This document shows positions 1-49,485 of a DNA stretch of 50,192 bases, piece by piece. A program made the translations under genes and the position numbers. How positions within the stretch are numbered: the stretch's first letter is position 1; each line of letters begins with the position of its first letter. This DNA is from Asterionella formosa (Eukaryota): contig NKIB01013883.1 in assembly GCA_002256025.1 (NCBI GenBank), forward strand, positions 1-50,192, written 5' to 3'. A model generated the notes under the pieces. The model saw only the letters and a list, made by a program, of their open reading frames with translations, searched no databases and was not told the origin of the DNA.

Positions 1-797
1 TTGTAGGCTAAATCAGATTAAAGTTACAGACAATTCCAAACAACCAGGTGGTCAGGTGGTTTATTAAATGAAAAATCAAAAGAGATACACATGAATCAAT
101 TTGGAATTGGAATCACTATTGCCAGCATGATGACGTATGTAGCACTAAAGTTTGGATACTGCTCGTTTAGCAAAATTACCGCAACTTGCCGGTAAGCTGA
201 GTACCCTGGTACCAGGTACCTGGTACCTGGTACCGGTACCACCATCTTGCTTCATGTGCATATTTTTATGCATCATCACGCACATCCCGGACTTTCTACG
301 ACTAATCAGAGTTGATTTTTCAACCAAAAAGGGAGTACAAAATCAACCGTCAATGCAACCGGGTTGATTTTTTCTTTGTTGTACAATACTGTATTTTCTC
401 GTGATCTAGTACGGAAAAATACCGTCAAGGTATTTTACCATCCGCAGTAGAACGATACTTGAGGCCTACAGAAAAATACAACCTGGGTTGATTTTTACAA
501 GTAATACCACGGGTCCCTGGTGCCTTGTAGAAGTAAATGGTATGTGGTACCAGGGTACCATTTACCTTGTACCAAGTACCATTTCTACGCAAAATGTGCA
601 ACGGCACTGGCACCTATCACACGCAAGTAGTTACCGGTAAATCATTTCAGTTGTGCTCGACACACCCAAATCATTCAGACATGCACTTACCTCTTCTACC
701 TTACTTGGTATCAACTGTTTTCATTTGCATCGGTTTTCGCGACAGGAGCGAACAACACGAGAAATAGAACAAGGTGCGACCATGACGGAGGCTGCAT

Positions 798-946: not shown

Positions 947-1030
947 TCCCTCAATGCCTACACTAAAAAAAAGTCCGTAAATGTCATACAGAAAGTATCG
1001 CTCACATTCTTTTCCCTTCAAACTTAACAG

Positions 1031-3899: not shown

Positions 3900-4900
3900 G
3901 TAGTCAGCAGTTTCTAGTCGTAGCCAGAAAATTCTCATCGCTCTCAGCAAATTCTAATTTTTGTCAGCAAGTTCTAGTTGCATGTAGTCACCAGCTGGAT
4001 CATCTATCACGAACAAAAGAGACATTTTGAAATGTCAATGGACTTTTAATCGACATTACTAATTAAATAGAAAATCAAAAAAATTTCGTTAGACCTACAG
4101 AACCGGTTACCGTAGTGTAGCGTCGTGCTGCGTAGTACTATGAAAATATCAAATCTGTTTGTAACTTCGTTGTTTTGAATTGTGCATCATCTAAACTTCG
4201 TGAAGCAATTCGCCATTGGCGACTTAAATTTTCATTGTCAAAATAGTTTCATTGTCAATTATTTTTTACGATTGTATTATCTATGTTGTGTTAGATATAT
4301 TTACCGGATAGCATAGTTTTCATTTTTCCATGTAGAAATTTGCTATTTTTGGCAAGGTCAAGGGGGGAGCCGGCATGATGCGGCAGGATTATCCAGCCAC
4401 GCACAAGAACTAAAATCTGGTGCGTGTTAATATACAGAATGAAATTGCAACATGTAAGCTAATTAATTATATACCAGCTTATATGAGGCAGCGCTACCTT
4501 GGGTACCCTAAAAATATACACCAGTATCCTAGTATGTAGCCATCATAGAATATATGTGATAGATCTATGTGATATATGTGTTATCTCTTTGTGATATATG
4601 TGTGATATTGCAAATAGTATAGCAATGCCCCGGTATGCTGTTGCATCTGACGTGATGATGACTGTGACCACAATGTATATAGATATGACATTACATGTGC
4701 TTATATGTATTGGCAAGGCAATCAGGGGGTATTGGTTTTGTTTGTTCATGTATATACTTCGTAGCATAAGGGTCATTCAGAAAATCTACGGTATTCTTAT
4801 TCTCAAATTCTAGTTGCTGTAGCAAGTTCTAGTCGTAGTTAGCAAATTTCAGTAATTGTCAGCAAATTCTAGTCGTTGTCAACAAATCCTAGTCATTGTC
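3900..4900. mobile_element. non-coding dispersed repeat (non-autonomous DNA element body), inverted copy of ~20640-21450
   Basis: 3990-4800 aligns by eye with the reverse complement of 20700-21435 (e.g. ttttgaattgtgcatcatctaaact vs agtttagatgatgcacaattcaaaa; ggttaccgtagtgtagcgt vs acgctacactacggtaacc). Partial third copy at ~25740-25920. Confidence 0.8.
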
Positions 4901-5092
4901 AGCAAATCCTAGTCATTGTCAGCAAGTTCTAGTGGTACTCAGCAAATCTTAGTAATTGTCAGCAAATTCTAGTCGTTGTCAGCAAATCCTAGTCATTGAC
5001 AGCAAGTTCTAGTCATACTCAGAAAATTATAGTCATTGTCAGCATATTCTAGTCATTGTAAGTAAGTTCAAGTCATTGTCAGCAAGTTCTAA
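4803..5092. repeat. 20-bp minisatellite (agcaaattctagtcattgtc), about 14 degenerate units
   Basis: Visible 20-nt periodicity. Related units at 3900-3980 and reverse-complement units at ~20660-20710. Confidence 0.9.
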
Positions 5093-5357
5093 ATGTAGAA
5101 AGGGTAGAATTCCTATTTGGATTCTGAAGCTAGAAGATGGTTTGCTGAACCCGTTCATCAGTCAGGAAATCCGAGTCATGTTCAGAGACAGATTCTGCAA
5201 GTCGTCATCAGTCAATAAGAGTAATGTTTTCCTAAATTACTTCAGGAATATCATTTTCATTGAAAGCTGGCCTATCATCCGGCAGGCAGCATGAGATGAT
5301 CCATTGGGATTGCATCAAAACTGAAAAGGTGCGCTACTGGACCTTCCAGGTGGAGTA

Positions 5358-5453
5358 CCTGCAAGTTGCGTTAATTGTAATCTAGCTATATATTTAGCTC
5401 TCTTTATCCTATATTAAATTGTTCATTGAAGCAAAATGACCGCAACTAGCTGG
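5358..5453. mobile_element. ~95-bp MITE (family A), TA-flanked
   Basis: ta|cctgcaagttgcg...cgcaactagctgg|ta. Shares internal tttagctctctttatcc...gcaaaatgaccg with the other copies. Confidence 0.8.
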
Positions 5454-5518
5454 TACCTGGGACCACCGATATCAGTGATGGTGATTCCTTTCATGATGAT
5501 GTCATCACTTCAGTTCTA

Positions 5519-5666
5519 CCGGACAAAGTACCTGGATTCTGTGTACCTTCACCGGACAAAAAGATCAAACTGTTGATCATCAAGACGAACGCGGTGAAGC
5601 TAGTGATTTTCGGTTGAAGTTATAGTGAAGATCACCTTCACGGCGTTCTCCTGGACGATTGTCCGG
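5519..5666. mobile_element. small TIR element (ccggacaa...ttgtccgg), TA-flanked
   Basis: ta|ccggacaaagtacctgga ... cctggacgattgtccgg|ta, followed by a cctggtacctg array. Only one copy seen. Confidence 0.45.
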
Positions 5667-8084
5667 TACCTGGTACCTGCCTGGTACTAGATCGTAGTAG
5701 CATCCTACCAAAGGCGAAATAAATTTATGGAATCCTGTTTTGTGTACACGGATATGGTAAGTTTTTCATGAGTTCAAGTGTGTTTGAAAGAATTTTGAGA
5801 CATGCATCACGATCAACACACTTATACACCATGGCGCCTTTGTTCCATCATGTCATTGCTGCAAAACTTGATGGCTGCCCAGTGAATGCTTATTTCGCTT
5901 GGTAGGCCTGCTTGCAGGAAGTCATTGAATAGTTGATGCAGGTTGAAATGCGCAAGCCAAGCAAGTTAAGAAGTAAAGCATGTTTGATAATATTAAAATA
6001 AATTTTTATTCTTTTACTTTCTTGATTTGCTACTACTTTATTATTTTATTTTGTCACAAATCTTTCCCTTCCTTCCATCATTCCAACAGATACTCAGCAG
6101 AACCATTTTAATGTTTGACAGCTTAGCTATCATTCCAACCTTTTTCTTCTTCGAACAAAACTCCACTCAATTAGCTAGAATTTGATTTTAGTCAATCTGT
6201 CAGCAAACCCAAATACATTTTCACTCTCCACATGTGTCAATATGCTTTGTTATGATTATAGAATTAGCAACTTAATACCAGCTATTTTGGTGGTTTTCGT
6301 TTTAAGAAGTGGATGCAACTCAAATTGTATTACATATCTGGAGTTGATCTGGCTGTCAGTGGACCAACACCATGCATAGCTATCTTGGTTTCAAATTCAT
6401 GAATTATTAAACTTCGTCATGACGATGAATTATCGTACAAATCAAAAAGTATTAATGGCCCATGCATTTGTACTACCCTATTTGTAGGCAAGTCTTTCAT
6501 CGTGCTCAAAACAACATATTTACAGCTTAAATTATTCGACAAAAAATTGAATTGGTTCATTGAGTTGAACTCTCAGCAGACCCAAACCGAGTCTCACTTT
6601 CAATATGAATCATAAGCTTTCATGATATGACCCTTGATTATCCAACACAACAAAGCTGTTTTCAACCTAGTCGACACAGACCTAATTACTTTATTTGGTT
6701 CAACTCTCAGTACTAGACCCAAATCGATTTTTATTTCCATAGGAATCATCAGTAATCTTCATCATATAATGATACTAGGGCAGATTATCCTGTACAAGAA
6801 ACAGTATGTATGCACTTTTCGAATGAGTCGACACAAACCTGACCGAACTGTTTGTTTTCGATTGAATGCTCACTGGATCCAAATTGAATTTCTCTTTCCA
6901 TTTTAATTATTATTCTTTGTCATGGCAATACTTTGTCAAACAAAGCTGGACTCAAATAGAATTGATTGTTTACATTATCTGTCAGCGAACCCCAAATTAG
7001 TTTTCGCTTGTTTACTTCCAGACCATATGAATTCTTCTTCATTGTGACCATAGATCTTCTCCAACAACTCAAAACATAACAATACTGGTCCTTGTTCATA
7101 CAAGTTGTTCTTCACGATCACTTAATTACCCAGCAAATCAAAACAGTAAAGTTTGTACTTTTTGTTGCCAGTTAAATCTTAGCAGGCCAAAAATTTTCGA
7201 TCTGAATTGCTATTTATTGTCATGATGTGAGATCATACCAAACACCACCTCGAAATAGCATGACATAAGTACTACTAACTAGCTAGTAACTCAAAATACT
7301 ACTGGTAGTCACATGGTGCATTGAGTGTATTATCTATACCGGGTGAACCGTGCAAATTCATGCACGATTTCATACATGCATTGTGTATTTATAATTTGTT
7401 GCCGTATTTCGACAACAAGTATGGCATACAAATGGATTCTGGATTCCGTCCTGTTGTACACTCGTGTGTAGAATTCATTGTATGTAGCCTGTCCATATCT
7501 CACCTACATAAATGTCGAAGTGTCCGGTAAAACTGAAATGCAACTCATCATCCACTGCCGTGGATCACTCATTCGCTCGTTTATTTAATTAAATGCATCA
7601 AAGCAATTACCGGTATGCTGGCTGATACCAGGTACCTGGTCGTTCCTCCGCCCCTGCCTCGTCGGCTCTCGGTCTGCCGCGCACTCCGTACTTTTTGCCT
7701 GCTGAGTCACTCAGGTCTTGGACTCACTCGACCAAATCATTCGTAAACCGGGATGTTGAAGTGTTTGCTTGCACGTAGCTAAACAGGGTCAATCCTACGA
7801 TCGCGTTTCTCACTTGCTTTTCGCACACCATGCATTCTTCGCTCATCTTGACATCTGGCTTTATGAAACCACGTTGTTTTGTTGGGTTAATTCTGGGCTT
7901 AAATTGTATGAATCAGCCGCTTGGTTCGAACTTTATGTTCATCATCACTTTGTTCTGATTCAGTTCATCCGTCGCTCAGCACAGTCAGCACAACGAGAAC
8001 TCCGTTATATGCATTTCAGCTACGTGATAGACGCAAGCAACCTACCGGTACTCCCCTCTCATATCACAATTGTAAAAATAGCAA

Positions 8085-11000
8085 ATGGTCAAATATGGAT
8101 TTGCAGTAGGCGTGTTGGTAGCATCAGCATGTGGATCGGTCAACGGCTTTGCTCCAGCTAGATCGCTTCTCTCTCCTTCAGTTAAACGTGAAATACGAGT
8201 TGGGCTTCGAAGAGGCATATCTGCTTCGACACTCTACGATCCCGAATTTGACCGCAACGACATCAATGCTTCCTTCCAAACTGTGAGTGCTGAGTATCTT
8301 GACTCCTTGTCGGGTGTGCTAAGCGACGACGACGATGCGGTTGAAGTTCAGATGGCCCTCAAGAAGAAGGTTGTCAAGGATCGTGTCCAGAAAAGCCTTG
8401 GCACCTTTCAACTTAGTTTCTCGACGATTGCTCCTTTGGGCATGTCATTGTGCCAAGTGGATCCAGGTCTTGTTTTCTCGGAAGTTGACCTCAACGTTGA
8501 TACCCTTAGCTCCCAACCAGCACCTTTGCCAGGCGCTACTCAGGACCTGGCAACAATGGACCTGGAGGCTACCAAGAAGAGAATTGGGTCCAAGTTTCGT
8601 GGGCTTTTGGTTTCATCTGTAGTTAAGGGAGGTTGTGCCTGGCAGGCTGGTGTTCGTCCCGGTGATGCCCTTGTAGCAACCTCTGCTACCATCGGGGATG
8701 TAAGTGGGCATGACAGGAGTGATATTATGCTTTTCTGACTTTCGTGATGTTTTCTTACCTTGCGAAATTTCGCATTCGCTAGTCTCTGTGGCCTAAATCA
8801 ACACTTGATGGAGTCAGATCAGCTATTTCCTCCAGAAAAGTAGTTTCTGGAATGATAGATTTTCAGTTCCAACGAGCAAGCGAGGCTGGTGTCAGCGCCC
8901 AAACCTATGAGCTTACACTCGCTCGACCCATTGGTATTGAAATTGAAGGTATGTCCATCGCGCTTCTACATTTGTGATCAACCACGTAGGTTTGATCAGG
9001 TTTTTGACCATGCCATACTTTCATCGCACACAGAAACACCTGACGGTTACGTGCAAGTTACTGGTTTCACCGAAAATGCCCCTAGACTTGTCAAATACGC
9101 AATTAATATTGGAGATCGAATTTTAGCTGTTGATTCGTCCATCGGTGGGAGCATGTGGCCTGTATCGACCGCAGCTGGTGTGATTTCAGCATGTACTTCC
9201 CGCTTGCCAGGCCAATCTATCACTATTCGATTTGAAAGACCTGAGAACCTCAACGGAGAAGCATTAACAACGGCTGCCATGGTTTCACCAGTTCGCGAGC
9301 AACAATCAATTCTGTTGAAAGCAGGACCCAAACAAGAAACGTTATTGAAGCGATGCAGAGATGTGCTAAGGAAATACAAGAACGAAGAACAACAAGACGA
9401 GCAGAAGAACTTCTCTGGTAAATACTCAGTTCCCTCATTGGTCGCTGACAAGGTGTTGGATGCGGTCGCTAGTGCGTCAACCTCACTTGATGCCAAGACA
9501 CTTTGCATGATTATGAATGCCTACCTTTCATGCAAGCAGCCGGAGGCTGCCATTAGAGCATTCGAGACGTCGGTTGGAATTAGCGCCGACGGATCTTTTA
9601 GTACATCAACCTCGACGATTCATGGGAAGGAGAAAGGCACACTTATCCCCAATCTAGACGCTCTGAATCTTTATACTGTATCGTCATTGATGAGAGCTCA
9701 TTCACTTCTTGGCGACATCGCATCTGTTCGTAGAGTCTTATGGGCCTTAGAAGGTAAATCAGGGATAGATGTTGACGGAAAAGTAACAGGTGTGTGGCCT
9801 CGCTCTGGGAGTACCGCATCTATCATTCCAGATACTCAGTTGTATAACATTGCCTTGTCGGCGGCTGCAAGGAGTGACGAGAGCCTTGAGGATCTTCTAA
9901 TGCTCTTCAACAATATGAGGGACAGGAAGGATTTCGAGGAAGGACCCGTCAAAGACACAGTGTCGTACAATACTGTCATCAACGCTTTGGCACAGGCTGG
10001 AAAATTCGAAGATGCTTTCGCCGCTTTCTACACCATGAAGCGATCAGGAATTAAACCAGATAAGTTTACATATACTTCTTTGGTGAAAGCCTGCGTCCAA
10101 GACGGTGACACTCGAGAACTCCTGTTTGATATGCAGGAGGAAGGAGTGAAAGCTGACGTGGTTATGTTTAATTTCATAATTAGAAACCTTTGCGAAAGCG
10201 GAAAATGGTACGATGCAAAGAAGCTAGTCACACAAATGGAGGCAAGTGGAATTGCGCCTGATGCAATGACTTATGGATTCCTGATGAATGGGTTGTTGAT
10301 AGCCAAAAAACCAAGTGCATGCCTTTCACTTTTTGAAGCAGCATGCGCTGAATCAAAAACAATTTCTTTAACTGAGAATGTTCATCTATTCACTACTGCC
10401 ATTACTGCAGCATCTGCACTTGAAAACCACGAGAAAGCTTTTCATTTGATAAACCGAATGAAAATTGCCGGAATCAAGCCGAATATTAAAACATTGACGG
10501 CGCTAATGGGCGCTTGCATGTCGTCCGGTAAGTACGCTTTAGCAACGGAAGTATACAAGCAGATTGAAGTACCCGATGCAGTCGCAAAGTCTAAAGGTGT
10601 GGAGGCATTTTGTCTGGAAGCTAACTTTGATAAAGCCATGGAAATCCTGACAAGCAAGGAAGGGCCCGAAATGTCCGGCAAGCAGCAGATGATGGCTCAT
10701 GGACACCTGCTAAGAAACTCATTGATGGGCGGAAACATGAAAGTTGCCAGAGACGCTTTCAAGGCATTCCTCGGGGCCGGCTTCATCCCTTCGAAGAACA
10801 CATTCCTTATCATTATTCAAGCCCTAAACCTGGTGCCACCAAAGAAGAGAAATCTACCATTTGCGAAGGTCATCCCAGAGGAGAACTTCAGTTTTCTTCT
10901 TTTCGTCATGGACTCCATACGAGACCGAAAACTTCCATGTGATGGCGTTTTTTATACATCCGTCTTATTGGCGGGATCGCGCATTGGTGGACTTCGACGA

Positions 11001-11306
11001 AAGATTTGTTCCCTCATGACAGAATCTCGAGGGAAAACAGAAGAGCCCGAGTCATATCAACGACAGACACTTGTTCAGGATAATTCGGCCCCTGTTTTAA
11101 ACGAAATCAGTTGGGAGGATTTGCTACATAACTACGATGCGATCAAGGCCGATATTGGTGTTCATCTCAGTCTTCCCTCGCTAACAGTCCGAATGGGCAA
11201 AGATGACGTTAGGCAAGTATTAACTGCTGAGCATGAAGTGACATACAAAGGGGTTGCAAGAAGGAAATTGAAAAGCACTGCTCCTCTAGTGTCATTGTCC
11301 TCTTGA
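8085..11306 (+). CDS. plastid-targeted protein with two PDZ-like domains and pentatricopeptide repeats (3 exons: 8085-8699, 8783-8948, 9034-11306)
   Basis: N-terminal signal peptide ending VNG-FAP (ASAFAP-like). PDZ-like segments GLLVSSVVKGGCAWQAGVRPGD...SLWPKSTLDGVRSAI and INIGDRILAVDSSIGGSMWPV. PPR motifs DTVSYNTVINALAQAGKFEDAF...MKRSGIKPDKFTYTSLVKAC, DVVMFNFIIR, PDAMTYGFLM. GT-AG introns 8700-8782 and 8949-9033 keep the frame. Confidence 0.9.
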
Positions 11307-11610
11307 ACCTTTACATTTCCTTATCATGATGGGCTATTCTGCGACAATGCCTGAATTGGCTCTACTTAACCACCTAACCAGTACACTATTATAAAAACTA
11401 ACAATAGATTTCCCAGTCATCTCAACTTCATCTGCCTTCAACTCAAGCCTTTCTAGTGATTTGCGAATCAACTTATTTTGCCAACCCGCTTCCACAAACT
11501 CCGCCAATGCATCATCAACCAATTGTTGAGTGAAAGGACGTCGAACGTAGAATTCGCAAAAAAATGCATCCAAATAACAAAATATAACATGAAGCAAATT
11601 CACAATCTCA

Positions 11611-12936
11611 TTAACAGCCAAGATACTCTTTCTTTTTGCCCCAAAAGGAAATAGGGTGCCTATTGGCAAATTCAATGCATTGAAGGACTCCAGCAATGAA
11701 AAAAAAGCAACTTCCCCACATTGTGCTAAAACTACTAGCCCACTTGGTAAGTTGGTAGCAACAACCAGCACTAGCTGTGGCAGGGATCGCAAACAACCCG
11801 CAAAAGAGGAAACCCCACCCACCCAAAGCGTTGAAAAAAGCCACATAGTATCCAATGGATTGAGATTTGGTTGCCCAGCACCATGATCCCGATGCTTCAG
11901 CCATACCGATATGGCCCACAACAACGAATCCAACACTTGGTATGACTTGTAGCAAATCCAAGAAAAATATTTCTACTCCGACTCGAGGAGCAGTGTTGAT
12001 ATCGTAGGGATACCACATCACAGCTGGGATAAAAAATACGAGTGTTGACACAAAGAAAAGATACGCACCAAATACGGAAACATATCCCCAGTCAGGATTC
12101 CAGGACCACCAGATATAGGGAGAATGGATTTCATATTCGTCAACGTGAAGTGAAGGACGAAGGGCCTCACAAGATGAGACCTTGGATCTTATCACATGGT
12201 TACCGATGACCACGTCAATTTCTGTTCACACAATACCTTCCTTGTTTACGAGCGGATCATCTCTTGTTATAATGTTGCCCGTTTCATGATGGTAAACAAT
12301 TGGATACCCATCACTGCGAATTAAGTATTGTCGGTCGTCGCCGTCAAGTCCATGATTGTCATGTGCGAGGGGAGACCGGTTTTTTCCATATACTCGAGTC
12401 GAACGTCGATAATCCCGCTTTAAATCATCGCTAGGGAATGCCATTTCCGTGTGAGTTTGATTTAAAACTTCAACAACACCAAGGTAGCCCGTGACGATAA
12501 ACATGAAAGCTCCCAACACTCCAGTGCCATAGCTAATCTGCAGAGCTTGATCTTCTGCCACTATTCCGGGCCAAGTCGCAAAAACTCCGTTTATGACCCA
12601 GAGAGTGTTAGCTACAAATCCAACCCAAGAAATCCACCAAGAGACAATATGAGGCTCCCAAGAAAGAAATTGAACGCTGCAATGGCCCTTTGCTGTTTCC
12701 CCACCAGGTTCTGGTTCGCCTTCAGCGAGGGCCAAGAAACGCATCTTGCGATGATGACGAGCATTCCAGTGGTAGAGGTTCCCGTCTTCATCGTTGCGGA
12801 TGACGGCCAACACAGGATGGCTGAAGAAAGGCCCACAAAGAACTGATTTCTCGAGGACCGAGTAACACAGACGTGGTTTCAACTTCTGCGCATTCTCAGT
12901 GTAGGCTTGAACTTGAACTGGATTATCTTCCTTCAT
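11611..12936 (-). CDS. multi-pass integral membrane protein (YrhK-like/fungal integral membrane type), interrupted by an in-frame TGA at 12226-12228
   Basis: ORFs 12226-13023 (likely start MKEDNP at 12936) and 11611-12213 are in the same frame, separated only by TGA and 4 codons. Many hydrophobic helices (SWWISWVGFVANTLWVING; WGYVSVFGAYLFFVSTLVF; YYVAFFNALGGWGF; WGSCFFFIAGVLQ). The family call is tentative. Confidence 0.7.
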
Positions 12937-13292
12937 TCTACAACTTCGAATGCGCTGTGCTACTCTCGAGCACCCATGGACCTTGAGACCCTTGTACCTT
13001 CGGCTCGAGCACCAAGGTACCACTACAACTCAGTTTGACCCTGTTGCTTGTGATGTACTCCATATCATAAATATGTGTACCGGTATTACCTCTATACCGG
13101 CATGATGTAATACATCGGGTCCCTTTATTTTCAATACTTTCTTTATCCGGTATACTGTACTTGTACGCCTGGTACCAGGTACCAGGTACCAGGTAACGGG
13201 TATGCCGACACGACAGGGAGCTACAGGCAGACAGTACCAGTACCAGCACCAGTGAAAGTCCTGGTACCAGGTACCAGGTACCAGGTATCAGA

Positions 13293-13369
13293 GGAAGCAA
13301 GGTCCGGTAAAACACGTTTTGACTTAAGTAAAGATTAAGCTAAATACCTCAATTACCGGACCTTCCAGG
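13293..13369. mobile_element. mini TIR element (family B: gaaggtccggta...taccggaccttcc)
   Basis: aaggtccggtaa (~13299) and ttaccggaccttccagg (~13353-13369) form an inverted pair embedded in taccagg arrays. The same right end occurs at ~5335-5350 and ~21670-21686. Confidence 0.6.
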
Positions 13370-13833
13370 GTACCAGTACCATAGTAAGTACCTGGTTGGG
13401 TCTACTCGGAGTAACTGGTACTCCTGTAACAGGTACTCAGTGTCATACTCGTAAAGTGCCAGTACCAGGTACCTGGTACCAGGCGCCGATAAACGGGAAA
13501 ACCACGGTTTGCTGCTCTAGAAAGGGAAGTTGCATTCATCAACAAAAGACTACCGGTAAACTACCGGTTCGGACCGGTAGACTACCGGAATGTAACTGTG
13601 GTCGTATATAGAAATGTAGATGCGAGTGGAATTTGTTTGAGGCCCGGCGAATGATTGTCAAGAACGCAGAATCTCGGCCGTCGTCATTGTAAGAAGTCAT
13701 TGTTATATACATTTTTAGATTGCTACCGGGAATATCTAATCAACTTTGGCTTCCACCCATCAGCGTGGAGACGAAGGGGTACAGAATAATATAATTGATT
13801 AAACTGATCAACTCGAAGGTCCTGATCCGAGCA

Positions 13834-16800
13834 ATGGCGGACGATGTGAGTCTAAATTTCACAGGTGTATTTTTTATGTACATTCATTACTAAGTATGAT
13901 ATGATGCTGTCCCTTCATTCAGTATTGTTTACTATCTACCGGTTTACCTTTCAATACCGGTATACCATAGTTGAAAATTAAGACTTTCAGTTTGCAAACT
14001 AACTTGTCTGATTCTCTCCTGACTTTACCTAGGGAAGCGAACGGCGAGGGAACCGTCGACGTGGGAAAGGATCTCGTCAAAAGATCCGGAGATACACCAA
14101 TTTAGAAAATGTGATAGTAGAAGAAACCTTCTCGCTTTCAGTCCCGGCTGATACCCCTGCTGCAATTCGTATCGAGGCAGGGATAAAAGACGAGGATGAA
14201 AATACTACCGGTGACGGCTACTATATCTCGGCTACCGTGCAAAACAATCGCAGATACTATGGAGTACTCATAGACCAAGCAGCACTTAAAGCTGCTTCGT
14301 TGCTTCATTTTCAAGACGAGTCCAGATCTCTAGACTTAAACCGGAGAATGAAGTTCCTAAGAGAACAGCAACAAAGTGAGCAAATGTTTACGAACCAAGA
14401 TAATTTATCGCAAACAGAGGGACCTCCCCAGAAGAAAACCAAACTGGAATGCAGCAACGGCGCGATGCCCTCGGACACAACGAGTCGCATTGTTCAGAAG
14501 TTTCGCTATGTCGAGTCTACGTCCACGGAATGCAATGGCCTCGGATATCGCTTACTTCTGGCTACTTTCACTGACGTAGCCGCGGCAGCCGAAGATGACA
14601 CCCTAAAGGCACAAAAGATTCATGACGTTTGTCAAAGTGGAGGTGGGTTCGTCGAACAATATTACTATCAATATCAGGTAAGTGTTGTGCATTCTTCTAT
14701 AGCAGCAATTAAAAGTTGGATAAACTAATAACATTTTAAAGGTACTTGAGAGTTCCCTGGCATCCACGAAGATCGGGAAGCCAACTGATGTTGGACTTCG
14801 AACGTCAATGGGGTTCCAAGACTTCCTACTCAATACACCGCTGCCCATCTGGTTTCCATTGTCAAATCTTCAAATCAGTCAGCACAAGATTCTTTCTATG
14901 CTCCAAATGAAAAAAAATAACAAAGGCAACATTATTTGGGATTCGAAGGTCGCAGAGTCGAAAGCAGAAACAAGTAGCTCAATGACCGGGAGCCACATTC
15001 CCATCGAGCCAAGAGCATGCTATCGAATAGGAATTATCGGAGGCGGAATAGCTGGTCTAGCTTGTGCCTTGGAAATATTTAGACAGGCTGAACAAGACAA
15101 GATTGATGTTGAAGTTGTCCTTATTGAAGGTCGGTCGAGGCTCGGAGGCCGCATTGCGACGGACCAGTCGACTTTTAAATTCGAAGATGGGGATGTTTTC
15201 CCAGTCGACCTTGGGGCTTCTTGGATCCACGGGATCGATCATAACCCTTTGGCAGCATTGGCTAAAGACGTGGGAGTTGATTTTGTTACAGCCAGCGAGG
15301 AGGTGAAGATGCTTGGCCGAGCGATGAATCCTGTGAACAGCACTATCGACGAAAAGATGGGGAAGTTATTTGATGATCTTCTTGACGAAGCAGTAAGTTG
15401 AGCATGTGTGGAGCATATTTGTTTATACCCTTTGGCATTCATCTAATTTCACTCAAAAGGCTGACGATGTGTGGGACACTGAAGATTCCATTCCTGATGA
15501 CTCACGGACTCAAAAGGCGGTGAGGTGGTATGCCGCAGTCCTCGATGGGAGCGATGAAAGTCATCGCGAGCTCCCAACAAGTGATGCACCAACTCACAGA
15601 AAGTCTTCTGATGTTTCTATAGACCACTCGATTGGACAGGCTGTAGCGAAGAATATACACAGAGAATTTGAGCGATTCGGTCAGGAACACCACGCCTTAC
15701 TTCTTTGGAACATCAAGAACATTGAATATGCGCTCGGAGCAAACATCAGCGACTTGTCCATGAAATTTTGGGACAGCGACGAACGCCACGCATTCGAAGG
15801 CGATCACGTCCTTCTTAAACAAGGATATGCTTCTATTATCGATCACTTAGAAAACAAACTAAAGAATAAGGGAGACAAGTTCCAATGCATACTTGACTGT
15901 CCAGTTAAGAAAGTTGAATACGCTCGGAAGACTACAACGTTACCATACACTGCAAGTGAGACGGTAGGATTCCGTAAGCTTGTCGAAATGTCAGATAGCT
16001 GTTCTGTGTCGGCTGGAGTCAACAATACAAGCTACAGGTTTGATTTCCTTGTGAGTACATTGCCACTTGGAGTGCTAAAAGCATCTACATCAACTAGAGA
16101 AGATGAGATTGGGAAAGTCGAGTTTGACCCTCCTCTCCCATTTTCAAAGATTGACGCTATCGAGAATACTGGCTTTGGCTTGTTGAACAAAGTTTATCTC
16201 CAGTTTACTCGAGCGTTTTGGAGAATCCAATCCATTTTTGACGAAGAGCAAACTCTATTCGGCAACGCTTCAGGAGTAAATCCTCACCATTACTTGTTCC
16301 ACGATATTGGGAAGAGCCTAAATAAAGATTGCGATGCTCCTGCTGTACTTATGAGTTTAATCTCTGGGAAAGAAGCAGTAAGTTGTGAACTTGTTTCGGA
16401 CAACGAGTTGATAGAGGAAGTTATCCATACTCTTCGAACTCTTTTTACTGCCGATATGGTGCCTGATCCCATTGCGTTTAAAGTAACCCGTTGGGGTGCC
16501 GACCAGTTTGCTCGAGGTAGCTATACTTTCCTTCCACCCGGAGCGTCTGATCAAGACTTTCACATCCTGCAATCGCCTATCAACGGCAACGGTGATTCGT
16601 TGGTGTTAGAGGGTTCCGAAACTATGCGCTTGTTCTGGGCCGGAGAGCACACAACTGCTTTACACCCATCAATGGCTCATGGTGCAATGATGTCAGGTAT
16701 TCGTGCTGCAAAGGAGGTTCTATCAACAATTCAATTCAATTACAACGACGAGAGGTCCGGCTTCGAGAAAATGATTCCTCTGTCGATTTTTCGGAGAAAG

Positions 16801-18162
16801 AATCCGAATACAATGCTTCAGTGCAATCTTTGCAACGAGGTCGGTAGCAGGGTTCGTGAAGGATCACTGTTGGCGTTTCAGAAGGGCTCACGTCAAGTTC
16901 TTGTTCACAACAATTGCGGCGAAAATTCTCCTGAGGTTGAGGTAAGAGACGGTCAATGGAAGAGCGTCATCAAGGCAATTAACAGGGGGAAACAAATTAA
17001 CTGCTGCATGTGCGGAAGGGTTGGCGCAACAATCGGTTGTACCCAAGAAAACTGTTTTCGTTCCTTCCACTTCAGTTGTGCTGAAGACACTGGCTATCGG
17101 TTTGAACGTGACGGCAAGACGTACTTTTGCGACTTACATCGTACCTATGACACGCACGAGGAAACTGAGTGTGATCGCATTTCGATTGCTTTTTATCGAT
17201 CCAAGAAGCCAACTGTATCATTGAAATGCGCGTTTTGTGGGGAGGTTTCCTCAAGTGATGCAGGACGGCAAGGTAAGATCATGGCATTCCAGCAAAAAAG
17301 TCGGCAGCTTCTTGTCCACGACAAGTGTGCTAGGTACACAAACCTCATGGAAACCCTAGAGGATCCCAAGAGTACCAATGAGTTTGATTTTCAAAATCTT
17401 TTCGAAGTCTTGGCTGGAGCCAAAATCTGTTCCTTGTGCTCGGAAGGGGGTGCGACAATTCAGTGCACTGACGGCTCATGTGACTGCCATTTTCACTACC
17501 CCTGTGCCGAGGATACAGGTTGGAGGTTTGATAGAAAGGGACTTGCATTTAAGTGTGAGAATCACCGTAGTATGAACGGTTTCCGATCCAAGAAAATAAC
17601 AATGGATGCTACATCGATTCCACATGGGTTTTTTTCAAGTTCTAGAGGTGGGCCATTCTCGCACAACCTGTTCCAGACAGGAGGAGGTACAGTGGTAAAT
17701 TCGCCTTCCAAGATTCTTCGTTGTCTAGATGCCAGTGCTGTCAACTCGCAAATGGGCAGATCACGCCTGGATATTCACCAGCAGCACATAACACTTGCAG
17801 ACGAGGATGAAGAGATTGAAGTCTCCAGTGAGGAAGAAGTGGAAAGTATTTGTAATCCGATGCTACAGGTGTTGTCTCGTGTACCTTCGAAAATTTGTAG
17901 TAGCAAGTCTACTGTCATACAACTCACAAGAAAGTCGATTACGGCTCCCTGGCAATTCACTTTTATCCTTCAAGATTTAGAGCCAATGACAACCGTCCTT
18001 TGCGTCGAATTGAACACCCCGATTGACTCAACATCGAAGAGCTCATTATATGTTGAATCGATCAATGGTAATCGTATTGGCAAAGAAATCAACCATCTCC
18101 TCGATGCCATGGCAATGCTGGAATCTTGCCTTGAGTTGAATATTGGGGTAAACTCAAATTAA
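13834..18162 (+). CDS. LSD1/KDM1-like FAD-dependent amine oxidase with two C-terminal extended PHD-type zinc fingers (exons 13834-13845, 14033-14677, 14742-15392, 15460-18162)
   Basis: IGIIGGGIAGLACA...EGRSRLGGR, DLGASWIHG, TLPLGVLK, GFGLLNKVYLQF (conserved Lys), TRWGADQFARGSY, RLFWAGEHT...AHGAMMSGIRAA. Two C-x2-C...VH-x2-C...C-x2-C...GATI-x-C-x4-C-x3-FH-x2-CA...C-x2-H modules. Three GT-AG introns join the ORFs in frame. Exon 1 is less certain. Confidence 0.88.
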
Positions 18163-19079
18163 GAGATTTTTTCAGCACCAAAATCGGTTAATGAATGATG
18201 GGAGGGTGGGGACGATATTTGACATGAACTGGACAGTCGCAAACACTAACAATGGGTGTCGGACTTTGCCAACTCTACTGCCACGAACTGTTCAGCCATC
18301 ACTCCAGCAAAGCGTAGGGAAAACATAAACGAAGTGGTCCGCTTAGTCCATCATTACTCTTCAAACATGACAATGAACAGCGGAAACTGCACAATCATTT
18401 CTTCTAGTAGTAACTTTAAAGCTTCCTTGGTATTGAAAATCGAATGGATGATCTGGAGCAGGAGAAGAAAATTTTCTTTGGAGACTTTGCACACAAGGAA
18501 TCCATTGATATCAGCAACTCTAAGTACGATGCCGTGAAAGCTTTGCTTGTCTCACAAGGAACGAAGGCTCAGAAGTGGTTTCGCGAAGAATTCATGGCAA
18601 GCCCTGATGTCGTCATGATGAGGAGTTTCAACCATCGAGAAGCAGGGGCATCTGGATCTATATCATGGGCTGAAATTCCCCAATTTTCAACCTTTTTGAT
18701 GCCTTCTTAGGTTAGAATAATCCTTACTATATTTCATCAGATCAAATCAGATAACTTCAGAAAAATATGCAATGAAAAGTATGAGCATTTTTGCTCTGAG
18801 GTAACGGGTTCAAGGTTCGAGTCCTTTCTCACATTCTGAGTAATCCATAGCAAATCATAATTGCTGATTACTCTTAGTCATATGAAGAGATAAGGTTATT
18901 TTGTAGTGTGGGAGTTGATGACTTGCATTTTTCGGTAACTGCCACCAAATGGAATTATTGTTTCAAACGGCAAGGGAAAAGTTATATCGTCTGGTTCCAC
19001 TGGGAGTTGACGGAAACTCCAAAGTACGAAAAGTCACATACAAAACTCTGTTTTATCTGAAATCAACCTCATATCATGT

Positions 19080-19470
19080 TTTCCAAAAAAATGCAAAAGA
19101 ATGCGAAATTTGCAAAAGACCGCAGAAACCCAGAGTCAAATGCCGAAAAAATCGCATATCTGGGTTTTCTTGTCTTTTTGCAGTTTTGGTGCATTCGTCT
19201 CCAGGCTTTTGCATTCTTTTGTAAACTTTGCGTTCTTTTGCATTCTTTTAAGGTCTTTTCATTCGAACTCTCTGAGTGTGATACCACCACGTTTTCTTGC
19301 CATGTATTGAAAGCAATGTTCATATTGCCCCGGATGTTTAATGTCTTATCATAGCTCAAATTTGGTTTGACAAAATGATAGTTGTGCATACTTTTCAAGA
19401 AGTACGCCAACTTCGCAAAAGAATGCTAACTTCTCAGAAGCATGCGAAATTTGCAGAAGAATGCATGACT
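19080..19470. repeat. A-rich direct and inverted repeat cluster (tgcaaaagaatgcgaaatttgca units)
   Basis: Units at 19090-19125 and 19415-19465, with inverted units ttttgcattcttt at 19207-19250. Confidence 0.6.
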
Positions 19471-20639
19471 AGAATCTTAATAAAAGTTGCTGGCTTGGAG
19501 CATGCCATCAAATCTGTTACTAATCACACTCTCATGATGTTTATCTTTTGAGCTATGCTTGATTTGTTGAAATTATTTTCTTTAGGACTATTCTTCTATT
19601 CACTAGTCTTGTTATTCATACATCTACTTATATCATGAAAAGTAATAGTCATGCATACTGGGTAGTTGGAATGATGGTGCTGATAATTCCAAATTTCAAA
19701 TCCCAATGACTTCAATTGGGCTGGAAAAAGTAAAAAGATTTTGAGTTTGTTGGATAGAATGAATATCAAGATTTGCTGACTTTAGCTGACCAGTCATTGT
19801 CATATGCCAAGAATTCTGTAAAATTTTGGGCATTTTTGTAAGAATAAAATTAGGATAAAACCTACCTAAATGAATAGTGATACAGACAATTTCAACAGAG
19901 AATTCATGATGTTCTCCACTATCTTGAACACAAGTCACAAGCACCTATTAGGCACCACATTGTCTGTTTCAATAAAATGACTGCAATATGCAGATGTGAC
20001 TGATAAACTCCAATGTATTACAATTTTTGCTAATACACCAGGTACTGTTAGTCTACTACTGCAAGTTTCGGAAGTTTTGCTGAAACTGACAACAAGGCAG
20101 TGGAGAGGCACTCGAATTCAACTCAAATATCAAAATTATATTGACATAAAATAATTTTAAAAGTTTTGCGCTGGATCATTTATTTTAATTTTTATCAAAA
20201 TCAAGTTTAAAGAATTATCTTCTGAAAAAATGAAAAAAATTCCTCAAACCTTGCAATGATTGGGGGGATATGTGGAGATTGAGTACAGATGTATATATAT
20301 TACTGACATTACTGCATCATCATCAACACTTTCATGGTTGCACATATTCATCATCAAAAGCAAGTTGCCATTGTTCTACGGTTACATACTTCCTCATATT
20401 CCTATTGAGAAACTGTGTGGTGTCATGAAAAAAGCGTCCTCACGGAGCTCCTTTTTCCTCAAGATAGGCAAAGGCAACAATCGATAGAGCACGAAAACTT
20501 ATTTCAAATGTAGTTCCCAATTTTAATCTTTCTATTTATATTAAGTAATTTAGAAAAAAACGTTATTCTTATTAACTTATGACGATTTACAGAATCAGTC
20601 TCTGAACACGACTCGGACTCGTCTTCTAGCTTCGCAATA

Positions 20640-21450
20640 CAAATAGGAATCATCTCTTTTCTACTTTTAGAACTCTGACAACGACTATAATTTGCTGACA
20701 ACGAGAACTTGCCTTGCCAATAGTACTATATATAAGCATATGTAACGTCATCTCTATATTCATGTTCACAGTCATTATCACGCCAGATGCAACAGCCTAC
20801 CAGGATACCAGGTACCGCTATACTATTTGCAATATCATCATACTGCTACATATATCACACATCACAGCCCATATATACTATGGCTAGCAACATAGGATAC
20901 CGGTATATATTTTCAGGGTACCCGAGGTAGCCCTTATAGACGAAGCTAATATATAATTATTTAGCTTAGATGTTATAATTTCTTTCTGTATATAAAATGC
21001 TAGAGTGTAGTTCTTGTGCATGGCTGGAGAATCCTGCATATTGCTGTCTCCACCTTGACCTTGTTGAAAATAACGAATTTCTCCATGAAAAATAAAAATG
21101 ACATTATGCTATTTGGTAAATATATCTAACACAACATAGATAATACAATCGTAAAAAAATAATTGTAATAACACTAATATTGACAACGAAAATCGAAGTC
21201 GCCAATTGCACATTGCTTCACGTAGTTTAGATGATGCACAATTCAAAACAACGATGTTGCATACAAACAAATTTGACACTTTTACAGCATGCAGCACGCT
21301 ACACTACGGTAACCTGTTTTGTAGGTCGAACGAAATTTTGTTTGGTTCTCTATTTAAGTTATGTCCATTAATAGTCCATTGACATTTTCAAAATGACTCT
21401 TTTTTGTTTATGATTGCTGATCCAGCTGGTGACTACATACGACTAGAAAA
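20640..21450. mobile_element. dispersed repeat, inverted relative of 3900-4900
   Basis: Reverse-complement similarity over ~800 bp, including 20-bp minisatellite units. Confidence 0.8.
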
Positions 21451-22011
21451 TACGATTACCAGTAGTAGTAGGTGGACACAATTTCGATGATCAGAACACG
21501 ACTTGGATTTAATTAATGATAATTTAACATTGACGAAAGTTATTTAATTTAACAATGAAGAAAGTACTTAAGAGAGTTTGGAATGAAAAGCCAGCCTATC
21601 TCGTCCAGCAGGCATGAGATGATCCATTGGGAGTGCGTCGAAACTGAAAAGTTGCGCGTAAAACGTGCGCTACCGGACCTTCCTGGTGGTAACCGTATGT
21701 ACTGCCACTAGTTCGTTTCCATGTACCTGAAATACCAAATACTATGATACATACGTAAGGATATATTTTTATCACAGATTACTCGTATTCCGGTTTATAT
21801 ATACATATGATATGCTCACTTTAAATAAATATACAGGGAAAACCGGTTTGACTCCAGATCCAAAATACTGGTACTCAGGAGATTCGCTCTTTAAGATTCA
21901 TTCTGATGTGAGCAACGTCGAAAGAGGCAAGAAAAACTTGAGACGAATCGAATCTCATTCCCTACGTAATGATAAAGTATACTTACGCAACCGACAAGCA
22001 TACTTTGCTTC

Positions 22012-25928: not shown

Positions 25929-26028
25929 CCAGCAAGTTGCGGTCATTTAGCTTAAATAAACAATTTAATATGGAATAAAGCAAGATAGCTAGACTTTTAG
26001 TTTCAGCGTGGTTATCGCAACTAGCAGG
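25929..26028. mobile_element. ~100-bp MITE (family A), opposite orientation
   Basis: ta|ccagcaagttgcggtcatt...tcgcaactagcagg|ta followed by cctggtaccaggta. Confidence 0.8.
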
Positions 26029-27061: not shown

Positions 27062-27094
27062 GTATCATATTCATATCCGTCTTAAATACCGGTA

Positions 27095-27981
27095 CCAGTA
27101 AGAAACTGCATTGACCCACTGAGAAAAATTTCGAACTGCATTGACCCACTGACGGTACAAAAAACACATTTTGTAATAAAAAATCATTCATTTTCTATTT
27201 TTTAAGCTCCAGAATGTATCTTGAGCATATACCGGATGGAGTCATACTGTTAGTTCTCAGCCGATTTGACGTCGATCTTTTGTTAATTTAGGTCAAAAGT
27301 GGCGATCGAAGAAAAAAAAAGTGGCTGAAAAGCACAGATTTTCTAAAGTTTGGAGTTCTCATCTTATATTGGCTGTGTACAACAATGGATATAAATTTCT
27401 CGCATTTTCTATATTATCCATAGCCTAGTCAATAATAATTCTGTAAATAAAAATTGATGAAACCCAGCACGGCCATGTAATACCTGTATCTTTGTGGGCA
27501 GACCATTATAAGTGGTTCGGAGTACCTGGTACCAGGTACCTATATGTACACATGCGCACAAAACTGATACATCTATAGTACCAGGTACCAGGAATGGTAC
27601 TGGTACGGTACCAGGTACCGGTTTAATGTACCGGTCTGTATGGAGCATCATGCCTTTGCTTGCTTTATGTCTTTTCGCTTTGAACCAAACAGGATAAGAA
27701 GTGTTCACCAACGAATATAAAATTACTTGCAGGTATGGTAAAAATTTCATATTTGTACTGCATTGACCCACTGAGACTGAATTTTCCGTCTAGATGAACA
27801 TAAATATCTTCTGAACCAGATGTTCAATTTGACTACCTGGTACTAGGAAAAGGATGCTAATGTACCAACGCCTTGTGCCATCAATACTTCCGAACAAATT
27901 TCAGAGAGAGGTGAGGTAAGTGCTAGTCGAACTAATCAAACGAATGGGATAAAACAGTGGGTCAATGCAGTTTTTAACTGG
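27095..27981. mobile_element. ~887-bp non-autonomous TIR element (family C), TA target duplication
   Basis: Left end ccagtaagaaactgcattgacccact, right end agtgggtcaatgcagtttttaactgg (26-bp TIR), TA on both sides. Internal repeats of ctgcattgacccact at ~27136 and ~27758. Confidence 0.9.
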
Positions 27982-28639
27982 TACCCTGGGACCAAAGGAT
28001 ACTGGGACCAGTACCAGTAGTCGGATCTATATAAAGTTCTCTCACATATGTGCTAAACGCTGTGTCGGCTTCAAAATTATATGATCCTAAACTTCGCTCA
28101 CGTACGTGTTCAACCCTGCGTCGGCTTCAAAATTATTTGATACTCCAGTATATGTATGCTCACATAGCTATTATATACTGGTCGGTATTCATGTCAGCCA
28201 ATTTTTAGTTTGCTGAGTCTGATGTCGTCTGCATATAGAAAACATCTAATTCTTGTGATGAATCTTATAATGGCGATAATATGATCATATAAATTCGATT
28301 TATCATCTAATATGAATAATATTTATCGTCATGTAGAATATTGTTTGTATATATATATACATGTATTATAATATATATACCATCACTGGCTGCAAACATC
28401 AACAACCGCTCAATCTGAATGCGAGTTGCATGAGTAGGACAGTCGTACATGGGTATGTGTGCATAGCTGCTGTAGCAATCTATAGCGTAGAAGACATGAT
28501 AGATATTCATACCGGTATGTGCATATTCATGTTCGAGTCTACTTGTGTGTGAGTACTGGTACGACCAGGTACTACTGTCCATTGTATCATCTATTGTACC
28601 ACCTGGTACCAGGTACCCTGGTAGTAATATGTTGCACAG

Positions 28640-30685: not shown

Positions 30686-31352
30686 ACAAGAATAGAAAAG
30701 GGGAACATTGGCTGTTTAACCACACAAAATGTAGAAAAATAAAAATGATTTCGTGATATAACAGTATAATTACAATCCATTTCAACCTATTTTTAACAGC
30801 TATTTCGATTAGAGTTACCATCATATAAGGCAGGATAGGTATATGATAAAAGAAAATACATCATAGGATAATGTTTTGATAATTATATGGTGGTTTGTTT
30901 ATTTTGAGTAAGCTTAGCCTGTTCACTTTCATAGTATGCATTTATCATAGTACATGTAACAAAATATGTATCATGCACAGAAAAATTCTGTGCCAGTTAT
31001 CGTACTATGATACCCCTGATCTTATAAGTACGATATTTTTTATTTGCAGACAGTACGCACATGCATCGAAGCAAAAGCAGAAGCAAGAACGCATGAATAA
31101 AAGCATACTCCACGTGCACGTAGGGGGAATTAAGGATTGACGACCATCAAATGAGAAGGCTGGTCCAACATACGTAGCCCTTTCTGCAGTTATCACAGCT
31201 ACTTGCCGCTTTTGTTGTCGCCTCCTTCTATCCATTCTCCTTGTTGAATATATTTGATCGAAAGAAAGCATTATGGTGAAGATTTGCTCTATTGCCTTGA
31301 GCTTTGCACTTGTATTCACTGCTTTTTCATTTACCCTCCATAAAATATATTG

Positions 31353-31851
31353 ATTTCTCGCATTTTATGTCTTATCTGTAACCTTGTTAATAATAATTCT
31401 TTAAATAAAAATTGATGAAACCCGGCGCGGCAGTGTACCGTAATACCGATACATAGTTACTACCTACCTGGTACCTGGTACCTGGTACCGGTACAAGCAA
31501 TTGTGCTGGTACTGGTTTAATGTATGGAGCATCATGCATTTTATGTCTTTTCGCTTTGAACCAAACAGGATAAAACGTGTTCACCAACGAATATAAAATT
31601 ACTTTCAGGTATGTTCAAAATTTAATATACTGCATTGACCTACTGAGACTGAATTTTATGTCTCCATAGATGTTTATAAATATCTTCTGAACCAGATGTT
31701 CAATTTAGCTAGGAACAGCATGCTAATGTACAGACGCCTTACATATGACATCAATACTTCCGAACAAATTTCAGCGAGAGGCGAGCAAAGTGTTAGTCGA
31801 ATTAATCGAACGAATGGGACAAAACAGTGGGTCATTGCAGTTTTTAACTGG
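31353..31851. mobile_element. family C element, right-hand part
   Basis: Direct similarity to 27395-27981, ending agtgggtcattgcagtttttaactgg|ta. Confidence 0.85.
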
Positions 31852-34077: not shown

Positions 34078-34273
34078 CCTGCAACTCGCGGTAAATTTGC
34101 TGAAACTAAAGATTTAGCTACCTTTATCCCAGATAAAAATATTAGTTTAAGCAAAATGACCGTAACTTGCTGGTACCACGTGCAAGTTTCCGTAATTTTC
34201 CTGAACCAAAGATTTAGCTCTCTTTATCCCAAATTAAATTGATGATTTAAGCAAAATGCCTGCAACTTGCTGG
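34078..34273. mobile_element. two tandem family A MITEs (34078-34173, ~34178-34273)
   Basis: Both contain gatttagct-c-tttatccca...tttaagcaaaatg-c-g-aacttgctgg. Confidence 0.8.
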
Positions 34274-34485
34274 TTCGAGGGAGTACCCGGTAGCTGGTAC
34301 CAGGGTACCAGGTACAAGTACCAGTACTCCAGACTCTGGAGTTATCCTGAGTCCGTAGTACCAGTACTGGTACCAGGTACCGGTACCACAGCCGGTTCCT
34401 GATAAAATCATATGAAATGCATGCATACATCATCATGTGCCGGGAGGGCCAACAAGGCAAGCAAAGAATGTCATCATGAAAAATA

Positions 34486-37623: not shown

Positions 37624-38619
37624 GGTGAATGTTGTCAAAATAAGTCCTACTGTATGCTACTGGGAACGCAGTCGTAAAGAATTAAACTCCCAGTTAAACC
37701 CGTTGTGGAAGCTAGCACTAGTAGTTTACTAGCACTCCAGTACAGTGCACAAAGCTAGCGACAATTCCGTTTCTGGTACCAGGTACCAGTACCTAGTAAC
37801 GGCGCCCATTTGCTCCTCCTATCGACCGGTTACCTGGGTGTGCCTGGTACCAGGTACCGTACCAGGGAACGTGTGTGCGGGAATAGACCAGTTTATGTAT
37901 TTAGAGTACCTGGTACTTAATATGGAGTCACCACGAGTACAGATACTATAGCACTATATTACAGTAAATAGAGGACCAAGTCTATTACTGGTAGGTGTGT
38001 ATATGTCTAATATACACATCCCCGAAACGAAGTGAAAACAATCAAAATATATAGCTAATGAAAAATAGTGAAAAAATAATGTAGTATGAAATCATGCACC
38101 TGTGTAATAATAACCTAAATACATACTAGCTGTGTATGACCACCAGTGTGATTTTCAGCAGATATCAATTGATTGGCAATCTAATCTGTGGCACTGTTCT
38201 ATCTAGAATTTATACCTCATACATTTTGTCAATTTGCAATGTGGGAGTGAAAAGAACACAGCTCAAAGTAGGACAGTCATCATATCCCACACAATGCTTT
38301 ACCAAGCAACAATACTTCACCATTCTTACTATATCCTGCTCAACCCTTGTAAAATTTTTAGCCACCTTACAAACCTAGTTCCAACTTTTTGCATTCCTAC
38401 CAAAGAACAAATAGTTTTTGGTGTTACAGAAAGACTACAATACTGACAGAATTGTTCCTCCCTCCTACCTCTTTGACACACATTCTGCATCATTTCTGTT
38501 TGTTCATCAACTTGTTAATTGTTGAAAACTTCTTCAAACACCACATTTGAGGCATTTCTGGACTCTCAATCATCATTCTGCATAATTGTGACTCCAGCTA
38601 CCACCAATAATACTAGCTA

Positions 38620-44295: not shown

Positions 44296-44299
44296 GCGC

Positions 44300-49254: not shown

Positions 49255-49485
49255 CCCGTGAGAAACTGCATTGACCCACTGTTTTATCCAACTCGTTTGA
49301 CTAATGCGACTAACAATCAGCTCGCCTCTCTCTGAAATTTGTTCGGAAGTATTGATGTCATAAGGCATTGGTACATTAGCATCCTGCTCCTAGTTAAATT
49401 AAATATCTGGTTCAGAAGACATTTATATTCATCTAGACGTAAAATTCAGTCTCAGTGGGTCAATGCAGTATATGAATTTTTTACT
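49255..49485. mobile_element. family C element end, reverse orientation
   Basis: ta|cccgtgagaaactgcattgacccactgttttatcc... is the reverse complement of ~27745-27981. Confidence 0.85.

Follow-up and report, generated by a model that had tools for sequence, protein, structure and literature searches.

What process fills the non-coding DNA of a diatom with short, near-palindromic words bounded by TA, standing singly in some places and chained into arrays in others? The question is raised by a 50,192-base stretch of Asterionella formosa DNA (contig NKIB01013883.1, the whole of which we call the window), where units of the form TA-CC(A/T)GG-TA crowd positions 13150-13585, between two genes. A first-pass annotation had reported such units there and at a series of other places from ~201-243 through ~44870, and had read them as accumulated scars of transposon insertion and excision, each of which would create a new landing pad. 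The units are indeed present at 13150-13585 and at each of the other places. From the sequence evidence set out below, we give a slightly better than even chance to the reading in which these units were left as scars by the excision of TA-targeting Tc1/mariner-like cut-and-paste transposons.

Counts in the window were compared with those in 200 dinucleotide-preserving shuffles. A filler was defined as the bases between two successive TAs, all fillers were ranked without bias, and a second ranking of fillers used 300 shuffles; three or more GTAC separated by gaps of no more than 14 were counted as a GTAC cluster. The enrichment of the units is real and far above chance. GGTACC occurs 59 times against a shuffle mean of 5.1 (maximum 13), GTAC 260 times against a mean of 120, and GTAC clusters 19 times against a mean of 0.065 (maximum 1). 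The fillers CCAGG/CCTGG number 34 against 0.21 (200 shuffles) and 0.25 (300 shuffles), CCGG 20 (0.24 and 0.23, in the same order), CCAG/CTGG 19 (1.06 and 1.07) and CCAGGG/CCCTGG four (0.02 and 0.07), whereas the mirror fillers CAGG/CCTG stay at background (3 vs 1.05, 300 shuffles). Among hexamers, TACCGG, CCGGTA, ACCGGT and GGTACC are the ones most strongly over-represented across the window. The annotation's statement that exons lack arrays is borne out: coding-like DNA, which makes up 39.7% of the window, holds 2 of the 77 units and none of the 19 GTAC clusters when these are checked against the map of open reading frames (ORFs). Solitary units account for 44 of the 77, the remaining 33 being chained through shared TAs.

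Transposon ends in the same window point to a source for these units. Self-comparison of the window together with alignments defined two families, A and B, of MITEs (miniature inverted-repeat transposable elements; Table 1). Family A has five copies of ~100 bases with inverted ends of ~23 bases, CCTG on one side and CTGG on the other, that carry a fixed mismatch at base 3; TA stands outside every intact end. Family B has three copies, only one of which (B1) is complete, and in the left arm of B1 an 18-base word stands twice in direct orientation. All readable ends of the two families are TA-flanked and read CCWG or CWGG, and TA is found on both sides of B1, A1, A2 and A4. Beyond the TA that follows the right ends of family B the flanks differ (TA-C in B1, TA-T in B2 and TA-G in B3), and therefore we take the target duplication to be TA rather than GTAC, and the CC...GG to be part of the element. 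The copies are old (75-84% pairwise identity), given which a four-base GTAC duplication at the family A and B sites is improbable rather than impossible. A GTAC duplication combined with CAG...CTG ends, which would yield the classic three-base scar, was considered and rejected, as two family B flanks read GTAT and GTAG. A further reason for setting that reading aside lies in the isolated units, many of which lack the flanking G and C: a G precedes the first TA in 19 of 44 and a C follows the second TA in 21 of 44. The TA duplication and the terminal inverted repeats (TIRs) suggest that families A and B are non-autonomous MITEs of the Tc1/mariner (IS630-Tc1-mariner) type.

The annotation had spoken of several TA-flanked TIR families ending in CC(A/T/G)G...C(A/T/C)GG. 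This was upheld for families A and B, and no others were confirmed. A generic inverted-repeat scan gave mostly chance pairs; apart from A and B the real-looking product was an 850-base element (44933-45782), a member of a different transposon family whose inverted ends of 30 bases (up to 83 bases at 73%) are without TA flanks. A TA-flanked CCAGTA pair in another locus (L008) was discarded as a chance match inside a coding repeat. The only transposase-like match in the window is an ORF of 146 amino acids just upstream of B1 (26621-27061, +), which weakly resembles the PIF/Harbinger-type 'Plant_tran' transposase family (E = 2.5e-4, below the curated cut-off).

How such ends could produce the units is conveniently seen from published work on excision. 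The cut that Tc1/mariner transposases make in the non-transferred strand falls a few bases within the element (PMC6943129; PMC4561436), and end joining leaves a scar consisting of the first or last two to four transposon bases between TAs (PMC6943129). The scars of Sleeping Beauty are given as TACAGTA/TACTGTA plus trimmed variants (PMC6943129), and Stowaway/mariner excision is reported to leave the duplication plus end bases (PMC4561436). Elements with CCAG...CTGG ends are therefore predicted to leave fillers composed of the beginning of CCAG and the end of CTGG. Almost all of the strongly enriched fillers are of this composition, and the mirror fillers CAGG/CCTG cannot be built in this manner. 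The centre of the five-base filler is A in 20 cases and T in 14, with C and G once each (A/T in 34 of 36). Other single substitutions of this filler total 14 over 22 kinds and its one-base deletions 42 over five kinds; in all, forms shortened by one base number 42 and forms with a substituted base 16. The A/T bias of the centre and the excess of deletions over substitutions look like variation introduced at junctions rather than mutational decay, and the A/T centre is as expected from an A:A mismatch between overlapping CCA(G) overhangs. The parallel that the annotation drew with Sleeping Beauty holds for the terminal bases bounded by TAs but not for their number, because CCWGG requires either both ends or a four-base overhang, which is more than three terminal bases. 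Its scar interpretation stands insofar as the units would derive from the ends of TA-flanked transposons, for which the case is circumstantial: the ends of families A and B, the spectrum of units, the published scar rule and a gain within B1.

In the proposed mechanism TA would be duplicated upon insertion, and excision would cut a few bases inside each end, leaving at the donor site a TA with the opening bases of one end and the closing bases of the other. End joining would then give TA-CC(A/T)GG-TA, the A:A mismatch of the overlapping overhangs being resolved either way. Loss of the mismatched base would give TA-CCGG-TA, and dominance of one end would give TA-CCAG-TA or TA-CTGG-TA. Chains would arise by later insertion and excision at the TA of, or beside, an existing scar, and their growth could owe something to re-insertion nearby, to a preference for G-TA-C targets, to templated repair or to some slippage. 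The clearest single instance of a unit that arose at a TA is the B1-specific 10-base gain, at a site where B2 and B3 both read C-TA-G (Table 1). B1 and B2 show a further 10-base difference that holds TACCGG, with no outgroup.

Table 1. Transposon copies, arrays, units and neighbouring genes in the window.
Feature	Position	Strand	Remarks
MITE A1 (~96 bases)	5358..5453	+	TA both sides; ends CCTG...CTGG
MITEs A2 and A3, head to tail	34078..34273 (34078-34173, 34176-34273)	+	joined through the single TA 34174-34175; in M18 aminopeptidase promoter
MITE A4	25929..26028	-	TA both sides; one flank runs into array 26029-26046
Fifth family A copy	~44746-44858	-	found by alignment
MITE B1 (887 bases)	27095..27981	+	ends CCAG...CTGG, with TA on either side; arms of 31 bases, 94% complementary
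MITE B2, partial	31347..31851	+	83% identical to B1; right end CTGG, then TA-T
MITE B3, short	49255..49484	-	84% identical to B1; end then TA, then G on element strand
Gain specific to B1 (10 bases)	27834..27845		TA-CCTGG-TA-C-TA; new unit relative to B2 and B3
Array of 6 GTAC units	201..243		fillers CCCTGG, CCAGG, CCTGG, CCTGG, CCGG
Array 1	13157..13195		GTAC units; fillers CCTGG, then three CCAGG, all TA-bounded
Array 2	13232..13291		two TA-CCAG-type units, then 28 bases (13260-13287) identical to 13168-13195
Loose units	13365..13445		TACCAGTA, TACCTGG and one TACTCGGAGTA unit (possible second scar type)
Array 3	13462..13485		fillers CCAG, CCAGG, CCTGG, CCAGG; 96% complementary to array 1
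11-base unit, four imperfect copies	13547..13588		contains TACCGG(TA)
Two short arrays	28553..28617		edge of high-copy repeat region
Two arrays directly 3' of A3	34283..34388		fillers CCCGG, GCTGG, CCAGGG, CCAGG, CAAG, CCAG / CCAG, CTGG, CCAGG, CCGG
Two short arrays	37773..37865		120-210 bases upstream of heme oxygenase ORF
Gene with several hydrophobic stretches	ORFs 11334-13029	-	one flank of 13150-13585 array region
Amine-oxidase/PHD-like (LSD1-like) gene	from ~14033		other flank of 13150-13585 array region

We then come to the manner in which arrays might grow. All eight of the eight readable MITE ends lie in, or within ~10 bases of, a unit, a correlation only, which fits either a G-TA-C preference or local re-insertion, as do the counts of G and C beside the isolated units (19 and 21 of 44) and the single TA shared by A2 and A3. 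Mental removal of B1 or A4 leaves a TA that lies within an array or on its border. The self-renewing landing pad is a plausible step, and multi-unit arrays may equally have originated in one step by templated repair; we infer the excision chemistry, the mode of array growth and any landing-pad effect. A wider proposal would make scars a major and self-reinforcing source of new sequence in this diatom: the two G-TA-C sites that a scar adds would attract insertions, and the scars would chain into satellite-like arrays that mark insertion hot spots beside genes and keep them open. The same process may underlie the stramenopile TA-NNNN-TA motifs TACCGGTA and TACATGTA, which would then be by-products, or later co-options, of transposon traffic. 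We offer this wider proposal tentatively and consider it possible but doubtful.

Dispersal of the arrays was assessed with contigs of four public runs (Logan) from four studies, compared over 13100-33099. The 667-base bin that contains the 13150-13585 arrays is present at ~87 to 97 times single-copy depth in two runs (X1 and X6) and at 50 to 70 times in the other two (X7 and X8), and dozens of run contigs end in arrays with unrelated continuations. Thus, the arrays are dispersed genome-wide. Array-to-array joints in the run contigs had sides of only 18-22 bases and were set aside as repeat artefacts. Among the contigs of the four runs, all of which break off at the arrays, no site had both a filled and a scar allele, and no set of filled, empty and scar alleles was seen.

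Several results weigh against the excision-scar reading, to which the findings on bacteria, Phytophthora and a marine locus taken up with the alternatives must be added. The window contains no Tc1/mariner transposase ORF, and the untrimmed CCATGG junction is absent from it (TACCATGGTA, no copies). The MITE copies are old and many of the arrays are clean, so the scars would have to be younger than the copies or come from families outside the window. Should the MITEs insert site-specifically, CC and GG may be a property of the target and not of the element, and the window is compatible with both readings. Only three of 51 distinct gaps of at least three bases between paralogues hold a unit, and only one of the three has outgroups. 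Finally, the run contigs end at arrays, and none of the 32 pieces among the matches listed bridges 13150-13486.

A first alternative is an ordinary heptamer mini- or microsatellite, (GGTACCW)n, expanded by replication slippage, into which MITEs insert preferentially or site-specifically and of which the single units are decayed remnants. Bacteria provide a precedent, as the triple GGTACCW-GGTACCW-GGTACC was found in at least 110 contigs of bacteria or metagenome-assembled genomes (MAGs; loci L023-L132), often several per genome (eight contigs of one Acidimicrobiia MAG and five of one Planctomycetota MAG), with no tie to eukaryotic MITEs; hence, the heptamer can expand without such elements. 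Viral contigs gave no matches to the triple. The window also has perfect repeats (3.6 copies at 100% at 13171-13195, within array 1), its C1/C2 paralogues differ by exactly one seven-base unit, and half-units flank every complete MITE copy, although this last is predicted by excision scars too. The bacterial repeats resemble those of the diatom in having GGTACCW in tandem in intergenic-looking DNA, but they keep a strict period of seven and uniform centres, whereas the diatom units vary in length, alternate and often stand singly. The bacterial runs usually adjoin runs of other heptamers, and their strict period-7 arrays resemble the cyanobacterial STRR class. In the 110 bacterial loci, 418 of 448 GTAC-to-GTAC gaps are of seven bases and adjacent units have the same centre base in 224 of 257 pairs (33 different). 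In the window only 25 of 56 gaps are of seven bases (13 are of six, two of five and three of eight), and the centres of adjacent units are near random, nine pairs being the same and 11 different (Fisher p = 3e-5 for the contrast with bacteria). These 20 pairs also qualify the flipping of unit orientation described in the annotation, which is real but amounts to a single A/T switch at the centre of a near-palindromic unit. Its statement that the arrays are unlike a slippage microsatellite holds: they show neither the constant unit length nor the mostly identical neighbours of such a satellite, and their irregular lengths and mixed centres make them look like independent junctions strung together rather than copies of a neighbour. 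Moreover, slippage cannot make single units, and the 44 solitary ones are therefore beyond its reach. Decay would not yield more shortened than substituted forms, and should favour transitions rather than the A/T centres seen; nor does this explanation offer a source for the abundance of the motif. The identical 28-mers at 13168-13195 and 13260-13287 make a measure of slippage or duplication likely, but as a general account of the arrays we consider a satellite unlikely. We think it very unlikely that the arrays belong to the transposons themselves, in which they would be binding-site repeats, subterminal or internal, and would have spread by transposition instead of being left at excision. 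The internal arrays of B1 (27522-27546 and 27578-27632) and B2 (31465-31494) do lie at the same relative position (27480-27636 and 31438-31520), which places an array in their common ancestor, but the two differ in unit content, just as the arrays at MITE ends differ between copies in length and make-up. Arrays 1 and 3 form an inverted pair of 24 bases (96% complementary, 272 bases apart), although a near-palindromic unit makes inverted matches between any arrays trivial. The array-holding bin is at the depth of a dispersed repeat (~90 times single-copy), but array flanks differ from place to place (the loose-end consensus agreement is 0.36-0.42) and the isolated units have unrelated flanks.

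A regulatory origin would make TACC(N0-1)GGTA a dimeric transcription-factor site under selection and the arrays homotypic promoter clusters, with MITEs that merely carry or resemble the motif. The near absence of units from coding-like DNA favours this possibility, as does the position of arrays 100-900 bases upstream of ORF starts (13157-13485, 34283-34388, 37773-37865 and 7626). So does the literature on Phytophthora. In the stramenopile Phytophthora infestans TACCGGTA is M94, a 'high-confidence' stage-specific promoter motif, beside TACATGTA, which is M93 (PMC3597505). Copies of the latter stand upstream of 12,070 Phytophthora genes; the authors of that work favour a homodimeric factor, having weighed a Tc1 footprint origin and rejected it on the grounds of abundance and conservation (PMC3520976). 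An unrelated marine diatom-like locus (L012) has six copies of TACCGGTA and four of TACATGTA in 15.8 kb (163-13865), these being its top TA-bounded four-base fillers, and the abundance of TACCGGTA there again favours regulation. The palindromes of this locus may instead be scars of CC...GG- and CA...TG-ended elements in other stramenopiles. The locus also has a small GTAC cluster (11975-12010) with the fillers CATTG, CATG and CG. Against a selected site, the half-site spacing in the window varies (0, 1 or 2) and the one-sided form TACCAGTA, with 19 copies, equals the palindrome in frequency. A palindromic site would also give no grounds for the excess of CCAG over CAGG (19 vs 3). Many units lie within transposon copies (20898, 27087 and 27522-27632) or a high-copy repeat (28510-29833), and one arose inside a transposon copy, B1. 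When metagenome contigs were scanned with the heme oxygenase protein, 22 loci from other diatom-like organisms came up, the best 53% identical at the protein level and none orthologous to the window locus; in their 104 kb there was no TACCWGGTA and no chained units, which speaks against a general regulatory array of diatoms. The chained form is lineage-specific. The Phytophthora palindromes share with the units the identical word TACCGGTA, stramenopile hosts, abundance in non-coding DNA, palindromic form and, for TACATGTA, a Tc1 footprint idea (PMC3520976; PMC3597505). However, the authors of these papers judge the motifs to be shared across species and interpret them as sites for transcription factors, and, supplementary tables aside, do not report them as chained arrays or beside MITE ends having matching termini. 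On balance we regard selection on a regulatory site as an improbable source of the units.

The window is nuclear DNA of a freshwater pennate diatom. Its heme oxygenase ORF (36190-37656, -) is 62-68% identical to diatom proteins (Asterionellopsis, Grammatophora, Synedra, Fistulifera, Nitzschia and Seminavis), and public runs of 16 studies, labelled mostly as freshwater or lake metagenomes, hold near-identical DNA. The genes that flank 13150-13585 are those that the annotation named, a membrane-protein-like gene (-) extending to ~13029 and an LSD1-like gene from ~14033. In the LSD1-like amine oxidase (14724-18162, +) a single long exon holds the oxidase domain followed by PHD-like zinc fingers (zf-HC5HC2H). 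Other arrays are found upstream of the M18 aminopeptidase (34480), the heme oxygenase (37656, -), a PRA1-like ORF (32161) and an ORF at 7760, and further ones lie inside transposon copies and inside a high-copy repeat. The high-copy repeat region (28441-31108) is at 40 to 700 times single-copy depth in the four runs and contains internal tandem units of ~59, 100 and 111 bases together with five isolated TACCGGTA.

Other repeats of the window are of different kinds. A degenerate Ty1/copia-type retrotransposon occupies several frames of 39812-44352 (+), with matches to RVT_2, retroviral SH3-like and gag-pre-integrase domains, and is followed by an array at 44865-44885. A 20-base tandem repeat at 4804-5091 (14 copies, 77% matches) and a second, shorter block 900 bases upstream (3866-4010) both lie within a larger repeat that has an inverted copy at 20543-21448. 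Units based on GTACTCC were seen at 34003-34034 and 13403-13413 (TACTCCGAGTA, TACTCCGTA and TACTCGGAGTA) and would fit elements with CTCC...GGAG ends. A second class of scars from such ends was not claimed, as only two instances of TACTC..GAGTA were present.

What is known in the proposed mechanism is the Tc1/mariner excision footprint. Like Tc1/mariner elements, those of the window are flanked by TA, end in inverted repeats and carry a binding-word twice in one arm. Footprints of Sleeping Beauty and Stowaway/Osmar likewise have two TAs around two to four first or last bases, a central A/T ambiguity from a mismatched overhang and trimmed variants from error-prone joining (PMC6943129; PMC4561436). 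The units of the window depart from known footprints in that the commonest filler has five bases drawn from both ends, in being the most over-represented words of the window, in their chaining and in that excision is deduced from sequence. In the literature searched, which covered sources other than subscription journals, we found no description of scar arrays, of self-renewing target sites or of this motif in diatoms. New would be the scale of the scars, which supply the top words of the non-coding DNA, their chaining into satellite-like arrays, and the feedback between scars and insertion.

If the excision-scar reading is true, promoters acquire short repeats and palindromic words from cut-and-paste transposons on a genome scale, and the scars offer a legible trace of earlier excisions, events that usually go unseen. 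The feedback from scar to preferred target to new scar would concentrate transposon traffic beside genes. It would also follow that abundant palindromic 'promoter motifs' found by enrichment, such as those of oomycetes, may be transposon scars.

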